A DNA stretch of 64,000 nt from contig JBFWOS010000001.1 of NCBI GenBank assembly GCA_050250375.1, positions 830,361 through 894,360 of the forward strand, read 5' to 3'. Made by a program: the position numbers and the translations under genes. This DNA comes from Candidatus Omnitrophota bacterium. Its GTDB lineage: Bacteria > Omnitrophota > Gorgyraeia > Zapsychrales > Zapsychraceae. Below, one piece after another: positions 5,726-27,647 of the stretch. Position 1 is the first letter of the stretch; every line of letters begins with the position of its first letter. Under the pieces are notes generated by a model that saw only the letters and a program-made list of their open reading frames with translations, did not search any database and had not been told where the DNA came from.

Positions 5726-6859
5726 TTAACTTAAGAGCATCTTAGTAAGATAACTTTCGTAGATTTTGTAGAATGTGACCATCGATTCGATATTAATCCA
5801 CTCATCAACCGTATGTAAATTTCCAACCAACGGCCTTGAGATCATAACCGGTATGCCGTGCGTCGATAAAAAGCGGGCGTCGCTCCCGCCATCATCCCTT
5901 GCAAGGACGGTCGACTGGCCAGTCACTTCCTGGATAGTCTTCTGATACTCTATGTCCGGCGAAAGACTGGTCGGATCGGCGCTGATGATGACGTCCATCC
6001 GGACATCTTCGCCTAATATTTCCTTAATATGTTTCTTCATTTTCCTCACTGTATAAGGCGAAGGAAACCGGACATCCAGCGTCGCGCTGGCATCACAGGG
6101 TATCCGGTTAATCTGTTTATTTTCCGTCCCCATCATAGTGACCGCACACGTCGGATACCACCGGTCATCCTGATCATGATTTTCCTGCATGACTTTAAAG
6201 GACGCTTTCAGATACGACAATTTATCCATGATATGTTCAATAGGGTTAAGCCCCTGCCACGGTCTGGCGGAATGGGCTGATTTCCCTTCACAGAATACCT
6301 TTATATGAAGAATCCCTTTCTCCTCAACGGTAACCTGGTTCAGAGAACCGCCGTCCGGAATCATCGCCTTGTGCGCACGCAGCCCTTTCTTACCGACCAA
6401 AAAACCGATACCCGACTCACCCCCGGTCTCCTCATCTGAGGTAATGGCAATCGCTAACGATGCTTTTTGGGATCGCGTGTTTATTAATCGGAAAATTTCC
6501 AGCAAGATGGCGACGGCCCCTTTCATATCCCCTGATCCCGGCCCGTAAATGCGGCCGTTTTCTATATGGGAACGGTAGCAGGAAACATCCTCATGTTCGA
6601 TGACATCAATATGCCCGCACATCAATATCTTTGGCTTTTTAATCCCTTTCGTCATCGCGACCAATGACGGGATACCGTTATCTTCATATTCAGTGACTTC
6701 CAGATGATCCAGAGAATCAAGGTGATTTTTGATGACTTCAAATGCCCTGCGCCTGTCTTCGGGTCTTGACGGGATGCTCGGGATCAACATTAAGTCCCTG
6801 GTCAGGGCGACCAAACGGTCTTCTAAAGAATTGTGACTGCTGGTTTTAATCACGGTCAT
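5726..6859 (-). CDS. M20-family metallopeptidase (ArgE/DapE-like deacylase)
   Basis: MCGHIDVIEHED and GPGSGDMKGAVAI metal-binding motifs of the M20 family. Start assigned to MTVIK to limit overlap with the upstream gene. Confidence 0.7.
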   Translation of the reverse strand: MTVIKTSSHNSLEDRLVALTRDLMLIPSIPSRPEDRRRAFEVIKNHLDSLDHLEVTEYEDNGIPSLVAMTKGIKKPKILMCGHIDVIEHEDVSCYRSHIENGRIYGPGSGDMKGAVAILLEIFRLINTRSQKASLAIAITSDEETGGESGIGFLVGKKGLRAHKAMIPDGGSLNQVTVEEKGILHIKVFCEGKSAHSARPWQGLNPIEHIMDKLSYLKASFKVMQENHDQDDRWYPTCAVTMMGTENKQINRIPCDASATLDVRFPSPYTVRKMKKHIKEILGEDVRMDVIISADPTSLSPDIEYQKTIQEVTGQSTVLARDDGGSDARFLSTHGIPVMISRPLVGNLHTVDEWINIESMVTFYKIYESYLTKMLLS

Positions 6860-8748: not shown

Positions 8749-10227
8749 TTATTCATCCAATTGCATAATCGGAGCAAAATATCCCTTCTCAGTCCTTGTC
8801 CAATACTCATGATTTTTCTGGAATAGATATTTTGATGTGAACTCATAGTCAAAAATCTTCGCGCGGATGTATGTGGGCGGGACCCCAAAAAACGGATCTA
8901 CGAAAAACAAATCCAAGACCTTTCTTTCTCCTTCAAGCAGTCTTTTGAGGAGGGTGGAAAACCAGGGGGTATACCTATAATCGGGCATCAGGGCCGCAAA
9001 CCACATCTGCCAGTCAAGCCGCGGCTGGTGAGGAGCGACCTGAAAAGGGGCCCGAAATACATTCCCGGGCTTATATTTAAACTCATATGTTTTCCAATTA
9101 TATCCGTCGTTACTTCCTTCGATGATAATTTCCGTGCGCTGTGTAGTCATCGTGGCAAACAAGCCGTAACTATTGTTGATCAAATACGGACGGAACGTTT
9201 TCATAACATTATCGACTCCTTTAGGGAGATTGGACTTCATGCCGACAAAGTTCAAAAACGTCATGGAAATGAGAATACCGACTACCGCCTGACAAAATAT
9301 GTCCTTAATCCGGGTCAGTTGCGTATCCTTGAATTTAAATTGTTGCGGCATCTGTCCCCACGAGGCAAAGGCCCTGTCATAAATCTTCTTGCGGAAATGT
9401 AAATCATCAATCAACAAAAAGCATAACGCAATCGTTATTAAATTAAAAAAACCATAGTTTCCGGTCAGCATAATAACCGCCTGCAATAACATAATTGCTG
9501 CGCTGGACCACAGCCTGATTTGACGGTCCATAAAAATGCCGAGGGGTACCCCCAGTTCAATGACAAACATGAACAAACAAGCGACCTCATGAAAATAATA
9601 CGGCTGCTGGCTCATATACCAGCTGATCAGATTCGGAAGCGGCTGTGTGTAATAATGATAGGATAATGCCGTCAGGTTAAGCCAGTTTTCATCCCCGCTA
9701 ATTACTTTAACCAGACCGGACTGAAAGACCAGTTTAAACAAAAGCAGCCGGAAGGCAAACATGACCCAGCGTGGCGGAGGTTCTTCAAACGTATTCAATT
9801 CCTTGGACCAGGGGGCTAGAAAAATACTCAGAAACCCGGCTTCCAGAAGCAATATATCCCATTGAAAACTTAAGAACGTTTGGCCGACATGGACGACTGA
9901 AAGGTAAAAAATCCAGAGAAAAAATAAACATACGGCCGGATAAAAACCGGCCGTCACCAAACCGGAAAGTAACATGCCGATAAAACAGACGGTGACCAGC
10001 ACCCAATCACTGTGATTAAACCAGAAAATCGTAGGCAGCCCGAAGAAATTTTTGTACCCGTAATATTCTTCCGCGGCCTGAAGATACTCGCCGACCGGAA
10101 GAATGCCACGACTGCCGATCAGCCCTTCAATCTGCACCCATATGGACGCGAAGGCAATAAAATAAATAATCCCCAAGAACCGGATAAAAAAACGCCGGGC
10201 AATAAAATATGTATTGGTTTGATCCAT
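8749..10227 (-). CDS. lipase maturation factor (LMF1/HTTM-like) family polytopic membrane protein
   Basis: N-terminal FFIRFLGIIYFIAFASIWVQIEGLIGSRGILP plus multiple TM helices and a large C-terminal domain typical of the LMF family. Confidence 0.45.
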   Translation of the reverse strand: MDQTNTYFIARRFFIRFLGIIYFIAFASIWVQIEGLIGSRGILPVGEYLQAAEEYYGYKNFFGLPTIFWFNHSDWVLVTVCFIGMLLSGLVTAGFYPAVCLFFLWIFYLSVVHVGQTFLSFQWDILLLEAGFLSIFLAPWSKELNTFEEPPPRWVMFAFRLLLFKLVFQSGLVKVISGDENWLNLTALSYHYYTQPLPNLISWYMSQQPYYFHEVACLFMFVIELGVPLGIFMDRQIRLWSSAAIMLLQAVIMLTGNYGFFNLITIALCFLLIDDLHFRKKIYDRAFASWGQMPQQFKFKDTQLTRIKDIFCQAVVGILISMTFLNFVGMKSNLPKGVDNVMKTFRPYLINNSYGLFATMTTQRTEIIIEGSNDGYNWKTYEFKYKPGNVFRAPFQVAPHQPRLDWQMWFAALMPDYRYTPWFSTLLKRLLEGERKVLDLFFVDPFFGVPPTYIRAKIFDYEFTSKYLFQKNHEYWTRTEKGYFAPIMQLDE

Positions 10228-10253: not shown

Positions 10254-10607
10254 TTATCCTTCCGGCGGGTACATGAGCTGGGTTTTATAAAACTTCTTAA
10301 ATTTCTTGGCGTCTTCGGAATTGACATTCATGATTTTAACACCCGTATTAAAATCACCGGCATCAAACGACGGGTTCGACCAGATCACCTTCGCCAGTAA
10401 AGACAACGGACCGGTTTCTTTATCCAGGATTATTTTTAATTCAACGGAGTGCCCGCTGTTCACGGCGTGATCTGTTCTGAAACAAATCCCGGTATGGCTG
10501 ATATTCACGGTGGTAATGACGGCAAAGGGAAACTCTGATTCCCAAATACGGTAATTGCCTCTCATTTCGATGGTCAGGCGTTTGGATTCACGGTTGTTAT
10601 TGACCAT
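10254..10607 (-). CDS. PilZ domain protein (putative c-di-GMP receptor)
   Basis: RESKRL (RxxxR-like) followed by an N/DxSxxG-like motif VNISHTGICF, in a single domain of about 115 aa. Confidence 0.5.
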   Translation of the reverse strand: MVNNNRESKRLTIEMRGNYRIWESEFPFAVITTVNISHTGICFRTDHAVNSGHSVELKIILDKETGPLSLLAKVIWSNPSFDAGDFNTGVKIMNVNSEDAKKFKKFYKTQLMYPPEG

Positions 10608-24360: not shown

Positions 24361-25386
24361 TTAAAATAAATGGATGGAACGGCCGATTTTTTTCTGCCGG
24401 GCCGTCTGGTAGACAAGGTGGGCGACCGCCGCATCTTGAATGGCTAGACCGGTTGAATCAAAGACCGTAACTTTTTTCGCGTTTCTGACAAATTTCTTTT
24501 TGCCGGCTACGATCTCTCCCAGATGGGCAAAAATTTTTCTCTTTGTGATCAAACCTTTTTTAAGAGGAACATTAATCTCTCCACTGTGAGAAGCCTGCTC
24601 CCAATCATCAATGACCACAGTCCCTTGCTGCAAAATTCTGGGATCCAATTCCTCTTTCCCGGCGGCGTCAGCGCCCATAGCGTTGATATGCGCCCCCGGT
24701 TTGACCCATGGATAAAAAACGATCGGTTTACGCACCGGGGTTGTGGTCACAATGATATCCGCTGATTCGACACACTCTTTAATTTGGGTTGATTGGATCA
24801 TCGCCTCCCCTTTGATTTTCATCCGTTTTATAAAGGCTGAACTCAAACCCGGCAGATGCCCCCAAACACGCACTTCCTTGACGGGAAAAACACAACGAAG
24901 CATCTGCAATTGCGTCACCGCCTGGACACCGCAGCCAACAAGACTGACAACACTGGATTTCTTATCAGCCAGGTATTTCGCCGCGACCGCGCCGGCCGCG
25001 CCGGTTCGCACGGCTGTCAGATACGTCGCGTCCATGATACTTAATGGAAAACCCGTTTTCGGATCATTCAAGATCAACACCGCCATCACGGCCGGCAATC
25101 CGATCTTCGGATTATCCGGATGCGCATTAACCCATTTTAAAACACAGCTCTGCGGATGTTCAATATAAGCCGGCATGGCCCTGAAGTCGCCCTTATATTT
25201 TTTGAGATCAAGATAAACCTTCGGCGGCATCAGCACTTTCTTAAGACCGTACTGCCGGAACACGGCCTGCACCGCGTCAATAGCGCTCTTAAGATGGATC
25301 GTTTTTTCAATATCGCGTCTGGTAAGAATTAATGTGCTTGAGAATTTTTCAGACATTTGGATTATAGGATTTGTTTTTGGGAACAA
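24361..25386 (-). CDS. ornithine cyclodeaminase/mu-crystallin family protein
   Basis: Rossmann motif LVGCGVQA and overall OCD/mu-crystallin architecture. Confidence 0.65.
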   Translation of the reverse strand: MFPKTNPIIQMSEKFSSTLILTRRDIEKTIHLKSAIDAVQAVFRQYGLKKVLMPPKVYLDLKKYKGDFRAMPAYIEHPQSCVLKWVNAHPDNPKIGLPAVMAVLILNDPKTGFPLSIMDATYLTAVRTGAAGAVAAKYLADKKSSVVSLVGCGVQAVTQLQMLRCVFPVKEVRVWGHLPGLSSAFIKRMKIKGEAMIQSTQIKECVESADIIVTTTPVRKPIVFYPWVKPGAHINAMGADAAGKEELDPRILQQGTVVIDDWEQASHSGEINVPLKKGLITKRKIFAHLGEIVAGKKKFVRNAKKVTVFDSTGLAIQDAAVAHLVYQTARQKKIGRSIHLF

Positions 25387-25750
25387 TCATGAACATAATG
25401 ATATAAGCAATAATACCGATCCCGCCGGCAAACGCTCCGACCAGGAATAAGACACGAAAAATAACAGGGTCAATATCAAAATACTGCCCCAGCCCTGCGC
25501 AGACTCCGGCCATTTTCTTATCGTTCTCAGCCAGATAAAGTCTCCGGATTTGACCCGATAATTCCATCTGGTTATTCAACGGCACAATCACCCACATGAT
25601 GATATAAACAAGAAATCCGATCCCGAAACCAATGATGAGGATGAGAAAAATAATACGGAAGAAAACAGGGTCGACCAGAAAATATTCGCCCAACCCGCTG
25701 CATACGCCGGCGATCTTATGTTCTTTTCTAATACGGTATAATTTCTTCAT
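25349..25750 (-). CDS. PspC-domain membrane protein (two PspC repeats)
   Basis: Two repeats of AGVCSGLGEYF / AGVCAGLGQYF, each followed by a TM helix. Confidence 0.6.
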   Translation of the reverse strand: MKKLYRIRKEHKIAGVCSGLGEYFLVDPVFFRIIFLILIIGFGIGFLVYIIMWVIVPLNNQMELSGQIRRLYLAENDKKMAGVCAGLGQYFDIDPVIFRVLFLVGAFAGGIGIIAYIIMFMIVPKNKSYNPNV

Positions 25751-25814
25751 CACACTATACTCTAATTTAATTATAGCATAGCATAATATCAAATTTTTCC
25801 AGGCAATATGTGGA

Positions 25815-26285
25815 TTATAATTTGGCCTGATGGATGGCTTTGGCTTCAAAATTTCTCAGCCGTCTTAACTCGCTGTAAAGAATACTGCGGGCCGGATGTT
25901 TTCCGCCATGGTGGTCAATGACCATAACCGGTTCACCTGCGGTGGTAAAACTGGCGAACTGGTCAATAAACTGTTCCGTGCTGGTCACGCTAGTTCCGAC
26001 TGAATTATATTTTACATTAAGGTACTGGGCGGCCTGAAGCGACGTATATTCCTGGCCTGAACGGATGATTTTGAAATTCGACTGCTTGACCAGATGGATT
26101 AAATATCGTATTTCACCAGCGTTAGCCGACTGGCTGGCCTTGTAAATCTTGTACGCCTCCGATTGCTCGATTTGCCCGTTGTTCGATAAAATTTCATGAT
26201 TCTCATCTCCGGAAACAGGCCTTACCAATAAAGTCAGAATAGACAGCAGCATAAACAACACGATCGCGATGATACGTTTTAACAT
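25815..26285 (-). CDS. secreted hypothetical protein
   Basis: Signal peptide; GGAGG ribosome-binding site 6 nt upstream. No family recognised. Confidence 0.5.
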   Translation of the reverse strand: MLKRIIAIVLFMLLSILTLLVRPVSGDENHEILSNNGQIEQSEAYKIYKASQSANAGEIRYLIHLVKQSNFKIIRSGQEYTSLQAAQYLNVKYNSVGTSVTSTEQFIDQFASFTTAGEPVMVIDHHGGKHPARSILYSELRRLRNFEAKAIHQAKL

Positions 26286-26302
26286 CCTCTCCCCCTCCCA
26301 AT

Positions 26303-26338
26303 AAAAAAGAGCCTATCCTTAATCAGAATAGACTCCTC
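26303..26338 (-). terminator. intrinsic terminator/attenuator hairpin just upstream of the RBS of the 25815..26285 gene
   Basis: On the minus strand, an 8 bp stem (GAGUCUAU/AUAGGCUC, one mismatch) with an 11 nt loop, followed by UUUUUUAUU and then GGGAGGGGGAGAGG-ATG. Confidence 0.45.
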
Positions 26339-26339
26339 T

Positions 26340-26600
26340 ACCTGTACAATAAATGTACACTGCTCCATTCGGTAGCTAGGCTATCCTTTAAAGGACCCTT
26401 GGCTTTGCCGGCCCCCTATCTAGGAGGCCGCCTGATATCCGTGGATACCAGGGTCCCTGAGTTTCCTCAGGTTTGCCGTTTCGTGGTTATCTCAAAAACC
26501 TATACTAAGTATAATCGGTCAAGTCGGGTAATGCCAATTTATTTCAGCACGCCTGTTAATGGCTGGGACATAACCGCTTTAGAATAACAAATACACAGCC
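26340..26600 (-). promoter_or_regulatory. structured 5' leader, candidate c-di-GMP-I (GEMM)-like riboswitch
   Basis: Minus-strand RNA contains CGGCAAACC-UGAG-GAAA-CUCA-GGGACC (GGCAAACC, a GNRA-capped hairpin, then GGGAC), a further GGCAAAGCCAAGGGUCC, and several hairpins. It ends in the terminator above. Confidence 0.35.
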
Positions 26601-26624
26601 GCCTTGTCCAGCCACTCATCGGAA

Positions 26625-27647
26625 TTATTTCGTCTCCCGTTCAACCCGGTTGACAATCCCGCGTAACAACCGGCCCAGAATATCCGCCCCGGTTATAATG
26701 CGCTTTTCTTTTTTCCAATACAAAATCAAATCATCATCAATAACATCATCTTCTTTATGTTCCGCCCTGACTTTAAATTTAAAGATAACCTCCCCTAACA
26801 TGGTGCCGGGTTTATTGATTAAAATAGGCCGGTGACAATACATGAGGATACTTTTGCCCTCTTTGGAATACATGATGTCCCGCAAAAAACCGTCAGAATT
26901 GAGAACTACCATCGGTTTATGTTTTAAGTCAGTAATAATCACCCACTTCTTGCCGGACGCATAAATTTTTTGCAAAAACGGATCATTCGGCTCGCGTTTG
27001 AAGTCCGGAAACACCGGGAGTCCTTTTTCGTTGGATTCCAGGGCGATAATGCTTAATGGGTCGATGATTTCCCCCTCATCCCTCAACTTGACATCATCCA
27101 GTTCAAAAAAATTCATCGCCCCCTGGGTTTCCAGGAGTTCAATGTCTGTGTGTCCGGAATGGACATGACGTTTAAGCATATGCACGATTTCTTTTTCCTG
27201 GAAGTACGCAATCTCCTCTTTGCCCAGCAGTGAATCCAGCAGTTTGGCCGTCGGTTTGGCCAGCGGATATAACAGAAACTGATAAAAACGGACGATCGGG
27301 ACTAGGATAAAACTGGATTTTAACGCGTGCCGGGCCAGGTACGCCTGGGGGAAGATTTCTCCCAATATGGTGATGACAAAGGTCGAAAAAATAAAAGCAC
27401 CGATACCCGATAAAACTGATTCAGAAAGCAACGCCAACAACACATTCACCGAGACATTGCCCCATAACAGGGTGGCTAATAAAAAATGCGCGTCCTTGCG
27501 TAAATTCAATATCCGCAGTGCGTCCTTATTACCCAGGTCAGCCTGTATTTCAAGACGAAGCCGGCTGACCCCGAAACAACCGAGGTTTAATCCGGAAAAA
27601 ATCCCCGAATGCAACAAACAAACCAATATCCCGATCCATTGAATCAT
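26625..27647 (-). CDS. CNNM/HlyC-CorC family transporter (DUF21 + CBS pair + CorC_HlyC)
   Basis: N-terminal DUF21-type TM domain followed by a CBS pair and a C-terminal transporter-associated domain. Confidence 0.7.
   Translation of the reverse strand: MIQWIGILVCLLHSGIFSGLNLGCFGVSRLRLEIQADLGNKDALRILNLRKDAHFLLATLLWGNVSVNVLLALLSESVLSGIGAFIFSTFVITILGEIFPQAYLARHALKSSFILVPIVRFYQFLLYPLAKPTAKLLDSLLGKEEIAYFQEKEIVHMLKRHVHSGHTDIELLETQGAMNFFELDDVKLRDEGEIIDPLSIIALESNEKGLPVFPDFKREPNDPFLQKIYASGKKWVIITDLKHKPMVVLNSDGFLRDIMYSKEGKSILMYCHRPILINKPGTMLGEVIFKFKVRAEHKEDDVIDDDLILYWKKEKRIITGADILGRLLRGIVNRVERETK

Follow-up and report, generated by a model that had tools for sequence, protein, structure and literature searches.

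The c-di-GMP-I (GEMM-I) riboswitch family (RF01051), whose ligand is c-di-GMP (cyclic diguanosine monophosphate), is the described system closest to the element considered here; its aptamer combines P1, a GNRA-capped hairpin and P3 with the conserved stretches GGCAAACC, GGGAC and GCAAAGCC and an AAA linker. The numbering used throughout is that of Vc2 from Vibrio cholerae, taken from its published base pairs (PMC11705072; PMC3764141), and it places GGCAAACC at G20-C27, GGGAC at G40-C44 and GCAAAGCC at G45-C52. In Vc2, the lower stem of P1b, as the GNRA-capped hairpin is called there, consists of G21-C46 and C22-G45, and P1 is topped by G14-C93; A48 and U90 form a Hoogsteen pair, C44 and G83 pair over a long range between the hairpins, and A49 has an A-minor contact with G45-C22 (PMC11705072; PMC3764141). 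G20, A47 and C92 recognise the ligand (PMC11705072; PMC3764141), with G20 contacting one guanine of c-di-GMP, C92 forming a Watson-Crick pair with the other, and A47 intercalating between the ligand bases (PMC3764141). The GNRA hairpin was originally described as having stems of 2 and 6 bp with an internal loop of 3 nt between them, and the linker as "virtually always AAA", and GEMM was found to be common in Planctomycetes (Weinberg 2007). Here we report on a relative of this family located on the minus strand of a 64,000-nt stretch of DNA from a Candidatus Omnitrophota bacterium (contig JBFWOS010000001.1; "the window" hereafter means this whole 64-kb stretch), in the intergenic interval preceding a DUF5329 gene, which taken as a whole is probably a cis-acting c-di-GMP riboswitch of the GEMM-I kind, of a four-way-junction subtype and acting in the OFF direction.

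In the name of the variant family c-di-GMP-I-GGC (RF03167), the letters GGC refer to positions 20, 47 and 92. The Cd1 riboswitch of C. difficile is an OFF-type transcriptional c-di-GMP-I switch with a terminator/antiterminator platform. The GEMM-I scaffold can also hide subtypes for other ligands, as in the c-AMP-GMP (GEMM-Ib) riboswitches of Geobacter, where the key change is an A at position 20. Variants for cyclic GMP-AMP (cGAMP) carry one key nucleotide change at a position directly contacting a G or A base of the ligand (PMC9481103). The window element has the helices, conserved stretches and linker of RF01051, the nucleotides G20, A47 and C92, the C44/G83 partners, a bulged A in P1 and the position of a 5' leader with an intrinsic terminator after it, and the class to which it belongs likewise controls surface, pilus and signalling genes. 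Unlike RF01051, it carries a 44-nt insert of two hairpins at C44/G45 (24-54 nt across the class), its first regulated gene encodes a DUF5329 protein, and the named hosts of the subtype are Omnitrophota and Planctomycetia. It shares the scaffold of GEMM-Ib but has a G at position 20 (26477), as do all class members found, this position having been fixed by the search pattern. With OFF-type platforms such as that of Cd1 it has in common an aptamer 3' strand that would double as antiterminator strand, and a separate terminator with a U-run before the ribosome-binding site; unlike the Cd1 type, its predicted antiterminator comes in two parts (CUACC:GGUAG and AGGAUAG:CUAUUCU) enclosing a small spacer hairpin.

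A preliminary description of the locus, made from the letters of the sequence, had recognised a GEMM-I arrangement on the minus strand, and the motifs are where it placed them: GGCAAACC-UGAG-GAAA-CUCA-GGGAC occupies 26477-26453 and GGCAAAGCCAAGGGUCC lies at 26409-26393. The former, a 25-nt motif, has an exact and single match in the 64-kb window, with 0.05 chance matches expected even when two mismatches are allowed. It folds into the 2-bp stem, internal loop (AAA/GAC), 6-bp stem and GNRA loop of GEMM-I, the 3' side of the internal loop being interrupted by an insertion (Table 1). The additional hairpins that had been noted are real, including the smaller one at 26359-26343, and two of them, Ia (26452-26431) and Ib (26430-26409), form a conserved insertion that is part of the aptamer core itself. 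Together they make up 44 nt, 26452-26409, which stand exactly between C44 and G45, and the 3-nt internal loop of the GNRA hairpin therefore becomes a four-way junction, in place of the contiguous C44-G45 backbone of the three-helix GEMM-I architecture. Hairpin Ia is found by RNAfold alone and de novo by RNAalifold, and the 351-nt region folds with a z-score of -5.8 relative to dinucleotide shuffles. According to the alignment to the Rfam model and to a covariance model of the class (R2, below), the ligand-contact positions G20 (26477), A47 (26406) and C92 (26372) are all canonical; C44 (26453) and the bulged AG (26382-26381) are present as well, and no 11-nt tetraloop receptor is evident in P3. 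The element thus shares the family-defining nucleotides but lacks two features of c-di-GMP-I, namely a score at the gathering threshold and the contiguous three-helix core, and we are highly confident that it is a GEMM-I-type riboswitch aptamer of a four-way-junction subtype. Such a subtype is apparently undescribed: no account of a four-way-junction or inserted GEMM-I was found, the original GEMM paper included, in a searched literature that omits much riboswitch work, nor was any Omnitrophota riboswitch paper of relevance found there.

The Rfam check proposed with the preliminary description gave a divided answer. Among 4227 families none reached its gathering threshold anywhere in the window, and c-di-GMP-II (RF01786), which had been named as a candidate to look for, was absent among matches up to E = 10 in 26200-26700; what stood was a sub-threshold match to the c-di-GMP-I clan. 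In a permissive search of that region the best match was RF03167, with 30.4 bits (cut-off 59, E 2.9e-5) over model positions 1-80 of 80, at 26486-26367, the alignment skipping 56 nt in the middle of the element. The overall fold is that of RF03167; the consensus of that family has, however, a G at the A47 position (GCGAAGCC, GCGAAgCc) where the window has an A (GCAAAGCC), and with this A and a score about half of the cut-off the window element is therefore not a member. It does not reach the RF01051 gathering score of 35 bits either, and a lower-scoring RF01051 match in the window would be hidden by clan competition. Matches to the c-di-GMP-I clan are nonetheless the only meaningful ones, in the window as in three of three orthologous leaders (L001, L002 and L003; RF03167, 24.8-28.6 bits), sub-threshold matches to PyrR, Qrr, mir-499, G-CSF and drum (E 0.08-4) having been dismissed as reflecting hairpins and the terminator. 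Within the wider class described below, the RF01051 threshold is passed by 18 of 31 members, marginally (35.8-45.8 bits, ordinary copies in these data scoring 53-80 bits), and missed by the other 13, about 40%; none of the four members of the window's clade passes. Rfam misses the window element probably because the insertion sits inside the aptamer core.

Orthologous leaders were reached through the DUF5329 protein, a search with which gave three other homologues (77%, 72% and 44% identity, on contigs L001, L002 and L003); on each contig the genes stand in the same order, and the leader has about 300 nt. Across the four leaders the blocks AACCACGAAACGGCAAACC, GGGACC, CCGGCAAAGCCA and GGAUAGCCUAGCUACCGAAUG are invariant, with compensatory stems between them, and the arrangement of GGCAAACC, GNRA loop, GGGAC and GCAAAGCC is preserved. 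When the four aptamers were aligned plainly with MAFFT, the proposed structure was 95.9% paired with 10 pairs changed on both sides, compared with 18-44% paired in slid controls, and none of 500 shuffles reached the observed values. All five P1 pairs are kept, one of them changed on both sides; in the GNRA hairpin two of the six pairs are so changed, under loops reading GAAA, GCAA, GUAA and GUAA; Ia is 100% paired with two such pairs, and Ib has five among its nine. The AAA linker A47-A49, a GEMM-I feature, is invariant, and so is every core nucleotide, while the variable helices show compensatory changes. Given no structure, RNAalifold recovers P3, the outer part of P1, the GNRA hairpin and the two inserted hairpins, departing only in the invariant core, where the four sequences carry no information. 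The preliminary description had named as speaking against it the combination of no Rfam match and no conserved structure in homologous leaders; this combination did not arise, as conservation and covariation proved to be strong.

The architecture extends to a sizeable subtype beyond this clade. A first scan of one genome per species with GGCAAACC N{8,30} GGGAC N{20,50} GCAAAGCC was loose and yielded mostly chance matches in coding DNA; among the matches listed, at least about 11 are real elements of the same architecture, the named hosts being Omnitrophota (L016, L021, L048, L087, L101, L106) and Planctomycetia (L013, L018, L031, L092, L105), and in those elements the GNRA hairpin always has exactly 4 bp, a tetraloop and 4 bp. 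A metagenome scan with GGCAAACCNNNNGNRANNNNGGGAC N{24,54} GCAAAGCC gave 82 loci. After removal of duplicates and of ordinary GEMM-I with a chance second GCAAAGCC (L080, L094, L130, L140, L141, L142, L177, L185, L200, L202 and duplicates), 78 distinct class sequences were left. RNAfold, applied to the insert alone, predicts exactly two hairpins in 76 of these 78, and two abutting hairpins with zero unpaired nucleotides in 65 inserts, as against 21 of 3900 shuffles (0.5%); the z-score of the insert folding energy has a class median of -4.8 and is -7.3 in the window. Neither the stem lengths of Ia and Ib (12-39 nt per hairpin) nor the size or sequence of their loops is conserved, and only the closing pair of Ib is biased, toward C-G (53 of 63 members).

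A covariance model built from the four orthologues (R1) was used to align 63 members outside the window's clade, and in this alignment 94.5% of cells are paired, versus 64.5% in column shuffles and 32-46% in slid controls, with a covariation score of 0.676 versus 0.177 and at most 0.108, respectively. All 18 pairs of the two inserted hairpins, nine in each, change on both sides (95.2% of cells paired in Ia, 93.4% in Ib), four of the six GNRA-hairpin pairs covary (99.7% of cells paired), and the pair equivalent to C13-G94 covaries as well (CG 35, UA 13, UG 3, AU 1). At positions outside the search pattern, C92 is a C in 61 of 63 members, the bulged G83 a G in 59 of 59 and U90 a U in 56 of 63. 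The position before G20, a C in the window, is more variable across the class (A 49, G 18, C 7, T 4). A second model, R2, trained only on the 63 sequences and hence without the window's clade, gives the window element 115 bits (E 4e-35) as its single match in 64 kb, compared with 65-105 bits for 15 other four-way-junction members and 42-60 bits for ordinary GEMM-I in the same contigs.

A terminator-like hairpin lies within 260 nt in 49 of 77 class members. The first open reading frames (ORFs) after the aptamers of the class encode, among others, seven pilins or pseudopilins that carry N-terminal methylation motifs, one Flp pilin, a T2SSE ATPase, three response regulators, three RlpA-like double-psi beta-barrel (DPBB) proteins, adhesin-like repeat proteins and an OmpA protein. 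These genes match the GEMM gene profile, summarised as "environment, membranes, motility" (Weinberg 2007). In L176, L150, L101, L138, L132 and L188, the 5' arm of the terminator is the aptamer's own 3' strand (GCUGCCGAA...), the overlap design expected of ON switches; the window's clade has instead a separate terminator and antiterminator, and the presence of both designs in one class is what a genuine riboswitch class usually shows. Some members stand in tandem: at L048:1475-1751 (minus strand) the four-way-junction aptamer occupies 1619-1751, with an ordinary c-di-GMP-I-GGC aptamer (72.2 bits in Rfam) about 65 nt downstream of it, and at L150:6572-6875 and L138:7132-7584 (both plus strand) a shorter, lower-scoring GEMM-I-type aptamer accompanies the four-way-junction one. 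Ordinary GEMM-I and four-way-junction aptamers also share a contig in L016 (6356-6450 on the minus and 640-771 on the plus strand) and L018 (844-936 on the plus and 6339-6466 on the minus strand), and therefore both forms coexist in a genome, not replacing each other.

The terminator hairpin and U-tract that had been placed just before GGGAGG and the ATG were borne out. An 11-bp stem (26335-26309, -13.7 kcal/mol) is directly followed by U6, as expected of an intrinsic terminator, and the GGGAGG ribosome-binding site begins 3 nt past the U-run. The hairpin is present in four of four orthologues, with CUGUCC/GGGCGG replacing CUAUUC/GGAUAG in a compensatory way in L003. A simple terminator scan of the window did not list it (26303-26335), a miss likely due to the pairing of AGAG with UUUU, which can lengthen the stem into the U-run. 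The aptamer ends 30 nt before the terminator begins, and the two have no nucleotide in common. Just upstream of the terminator 5' arm, the hexamer GGUAGA stays invariant in the four orthologues although the rest of the spacer varies, and it is complementary to the CUACC of C89-C93, which includes C92. For nascent transcripts of L001, L002 and L003 ending before the terminator 3' arm, the minimum free energy (MFE) fold pairs AGGAUAGCCUAGCUACC with GGUAG and the terminator 5' arm. For the nascent window transcript, the aptamer fold has -59.5, the orthologue-type antiterminator -62.1 and an alternative pairing that sequesters the terminator 5' arm -66.7 kcal/mol, and the antiterminator conformers are thus 2.6-7.2 kcal/mol more stable than the ligand-free aptamer fold.

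These features suggest the following course of events. Transcription would start near 26501, and the segment 26486-26365 would fold as P1, the GNRA-capped hairpin and P3 around the G20/A47/C92 pocket, with the chain leaving the core after C44, forming the abutting Ia and Ib and returning at G45. If c-di-GMP is bound, the aptamer would keep its own 3' strand, AGGAUAGCCUAGCUACC, leaving GGUAGAGGAGUCUAUUCU free for the terminator, and transcription would stop at U6 before the DUF5329-PspC genes, the OFF state. In the ligand-free RNA, AGGAUAGCCUAGCUACC would pair with GGUAG and the terminator 5' arm as antiterminator, and RNA polymerase would read through. The predicted ligand, c-di-GMP, is likely given the canonical G20/A47/C92 triad and the downstream genes of the class, and of the two directions we lean toward OFF.

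The proposal of a GEMM-I-like c-di-GMP riboswitch with a terminator platform is upheld by the restriction of Rfam matches to a single clan, the canonical contacts, the covariation among orthologues, the relatives passing RF01051 and the conserved terminator. Against reading the leader as a c-di-GMP OFF switch there weigh, besides the scores below every Rfam threshold, the fact that the 63-member alignment was fitted to a model, which favours the proposed structure (the model-free RNAfold result on the inserts agrees with the model-fitted covariation); the invariance of G20 and A47 in the class, which arises partly because the search patterns fixed both; the place of the insertion, which adjoins the G45-C22 pair and C44, both near the binding pocket; the lack of a diguanylate cyclase or phosphodiesterase among the ten window ORFs scanned; the most stable nascent fold of the window, which uses another antiterminator pairing (the P3 5' strand with UAGAGGAGUCU) than the orthologues; and the full-length MFE structure (-80.0 kcal/mol), which keeps the terminator whatever the aptamer does. 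A switch would thus have to be a kinetic one, with a direction that thermodynamic folding is unable to settle. This last point leaves room for the same aptamer and ligand working with reversed polarity, c-di-GMP preventing termination or promoting expression, as many GEMM-I riboswitches are ON switches (Weinberg 2007) and six members of the subtype, listed above, use the aptamer 3' strand as terminator 5' arm. We hold this to be unlikely in the window: its terminator lies 30 nt away and has no nucleotides in common with the aptamer, so the ligand cannot block it directly, and the competitor of the terminator 5' arm is the aptamer 3' strand, which the ligand would lock away.

The insertion itself raises the question of specificity. 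Standing between C44 and G45, it adjoins the pairs that floor the binding pocket, and affinity or specificity may be altered; ordinary and four-way-junction aptamers within one genome, sometimes in tandem (L048, L150, L138, L016, L018), hint at non-redundant roles, and cGAMP-sensing variants hidden within GEMM-I are a precedent (PMC7266159). A subtype responding to another cyclic dinucleotide, to a linear derivative such as pGpG or to a second factor such as a protein binding Ia/Ib, and thus a new class on the GEMM-I scaffold, is nevertheless improbable, as known specificity variants differ at exactly such positions as G20, A47 and C92, which are canonical here, the unconserved sequence, length and loops of Ia and Ib argue against a specific binding surface, and the downstream genes are typical of c-di-GMP control. 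Since the two hairpins vary freely in sequence, length and loop, they are most likely a structural brace rather than a recognition site. A distinct riboswitch class in which they would be more than a passive brace, for example through other ligand selectivity or kinetics, or through helical packing that replaces the tetraloop-receptor clamp, is a speculative and rather unlikely proposition; if true, Omnitrophota and Planctomycetota would have retained it beside ordinary GEMM-I for a job that the ordinary form cannot do. Least credible, to the point of being very improbable, is a decayed GEMM-I relic, or a leader with some other role (mRNA stability, a protein-binding site), that senses no ligand. 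The score below the Rfam threshold, the C.A mismatch at the base of P3 and a J1/2 of 4 nt, compared with 5 in Vc2, would fit decay, but the mismatch recurs in 10 of 63 other members and the 4-nt J1/2 is the class consensus, the core is invariant and the helices covary across orthologues whose flanking protein is down to 44% identical, the R2 score exceeds those of the 15 other members scored, and a matched terminator and antiterminator are conserved. A c-di-GMP OFF switch on a braced GEMM-I aptamer thus remains the reading that we prefer.

Table 1. Positions of the aptamer, its expression platform and the surrounding features in the window (numbered nucleotides as in Vc2; all on the minus strand).
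Feature	Position	Strand	Basis	Remarks
Complete aptamer, 122 nt, GEMM-I/c-di-GMP-I type with four-way junction	26365-26486	-	RF03167 and class model R2	
P1 5' strand, CCACG	26482-26486	-		Pairs with 26371-26370 and 26367-26365; AA 26369-26368 bulged (A95 equivalent)
J1/2 and G20	26477-26481	-	Sequence	AAAC 26481-26478; G20 26477
GNRA-capped hairpin (P1b)	26453-26476	-	Motif match	2-bp lower stem with G21 C22 as its 5' strand; A23-A25 in the junction; 6-bp upper stem; GAAA loop 26465-26462; G42 A43 C44 at 26455-26453
Inserted hairpin Ia	26431-26452	-		9 bp, loop CACG; begins directly after C44
Inserted hairpin Ib	26409-26430	-		9 bp, loop AGAU; abuts Ia and G45 with zero linker nucleotides
3' strand of the 2-bp lower stem and AAA linker	26404-26408	-	Sequence	G45 C46 26408-26407; A47 26406, A48 26405, A49 26404
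P3 hairpin	26374-26403	-		Bulged A82 and G83 equivalents 26382 and 26381; C52/A87 (26401/26377) mismatched; U90 26374
A91, C92 and P1 3' strand	26365-26373	-	Sequence	C92 26372; P1 strand C93 G94 (AA) U G G
Spacer hairpin	26343-26359	-	RNAfold	UGUACA-UUUAU-UGUACA; sequence varies among orthologues
Switching sequence GGUAGAGGAGUCUAUUCU	26325-26342	-		Can pair with aptamer 3' strand AGGAUAGCCUAGCUACC (26387-26371) or, via its 3' 11 nt, with the terminator 3' arm
Intrinsic terminator	26303-26335	-		5' arm GAGUCUAUUCU 26335-26325, loop GAUUA, 3' arm AGGAUAGGCUC 26319-26309, U6 26308-26303
Ribosome-binding site GGGAGGGGGAGAGG and ATG of regulated gene	26283-26299	-	Sequence	GGGAGG at 26299, ATG at 26285
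Predicted sigma-70-type promoter	26508-26537	-	Consensus scan, 10/12 matches	-35 TTGGCA 26537-26532, 18-nt spacer, -10 TATACT 26513-26508
Intergenic interval, 339 nt	26286-26624	-		Whole gap from CNNM-family gene to DUF5329 gene
CNNM-family gene	26625-27647	-		Upstream neighbour
DUF5329 gene, 156 aa	25815-26285	-	PF17263, 55.3 bits	Signal peptide; first regulated gene
Second gene, membrane protein with two PspC domains	25349-25849	-	PF04024, 145.7 bits	

The leader had been taken to be 340 bp of structured RNA, an extent that holds in part. The interval is the whole 339-nt intergenic region, and its 5' third is predicted promoter: the TTGGCA and TATACT hexamers are invariant in the alignment of the four orthologous leaders and their flanks variable, the 5' part of about 120 nt would therefore be promoter and not leader RNA, transcription probably starts near 26501, judging from the position of the hexamers, and about 215 nt of the 339 are probably RNA. 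A conserved block, CCCAGCCATTAACAGG (core CATTAA), at 26550-26565 on the minus strand, lies upstream of the predicted -35 hexamer by about 15-30 nt and is shared by the four orthologous leaders; it may serve as an UP element, or as the operator of a protein regulator that works beside the riboswitch. Directly 3' of the CNNM stop codon lies a terminator-like hairpin (26595-26615, minus strand), which fits a DUF5329 leader with its own promoter. An ORF of 62 aa on the plus strand, at 26399-26587, was rejected, as single-nucleotide indels among the orthologues break its frame. The strand bias of the 64-kb window is very strong: among 67 non-overlapping ORFs with 80 aa or more, 60 lie on the minus strand.

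On that strand the DUF5329 gene is followed by the PspC-domain gene, an ornithine-cyclodeaminase-like (OCD) gene and cmoA/cmoB-like genes, and the order CNNM, leader, DUF5329, PspC, OCD, cmoA, cmoB is kept in L003. The PspC gene is probably co-transcribed with that for DUF5329. As listed (TTG start, 166 aa), its ORF shares 35 nt with the DUF5329 gene; orthologous proteins have 134 and 152 aa, and for this reason the true start is probably an internal ATG near 25750 (MKKLYRIRKEHK...). The DUF5329 protein is 100% identical to an NCBI-listed protein from a Candidatus Omnitrophota metagenome-assembled genome. No literature on DUF5329 was found in the papers searched, and by sequence the protein has no homologue among solved structures. 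Its AlphaFold2 model, of mixed helices and strands, is confident (mean predicted local distance difference test, pLDDT, 81.5; predicted template modelling score, pTM, 0.73) and has no Foldseek match in the PDB (best E 0.65). The signal peptide, together with the adjoining PspC-domain membrane protein, suggests an envelope-associated role. As for c-di-GMP signalling elsewhere in the window, the PilZ protein that had been pointed out is confirmed at 10257-10607 (PF07238, 44.6 bits, cut-off 22.5) and counts in favour of a leader that senses c-di-GMP. Directly downstream of it, the minus-strand gene at 8752-10227 encodes a bacterial protein homologous to lipase maturation factor (LMF1; PF06762, 183 bits, and PF25179, 160 bits), whose family is best known from eukaryotes.

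For the family as a whole, these results mean that riboswitch counts which rely on Rfam fall short of the real number of c-di-GMP regulons in Omnitrophota and Planctomycetota; the class model R2 separates the subtype cleanly, and more than half of its members can already be annotated automatically as c-di-GMP-I. GEMM-I is among the best-studied riboswitch folds, and an insertion at C44/G45 is a natural test of the C44-G83 clamp and of parallel helix packing. For the organism, a secreted DUF5329 protein and a PspC-domain membrane protein would come under c-di-GMP control, as predicted here, in an uncultivated phylum, which would give a first functional handle on DUF5329.

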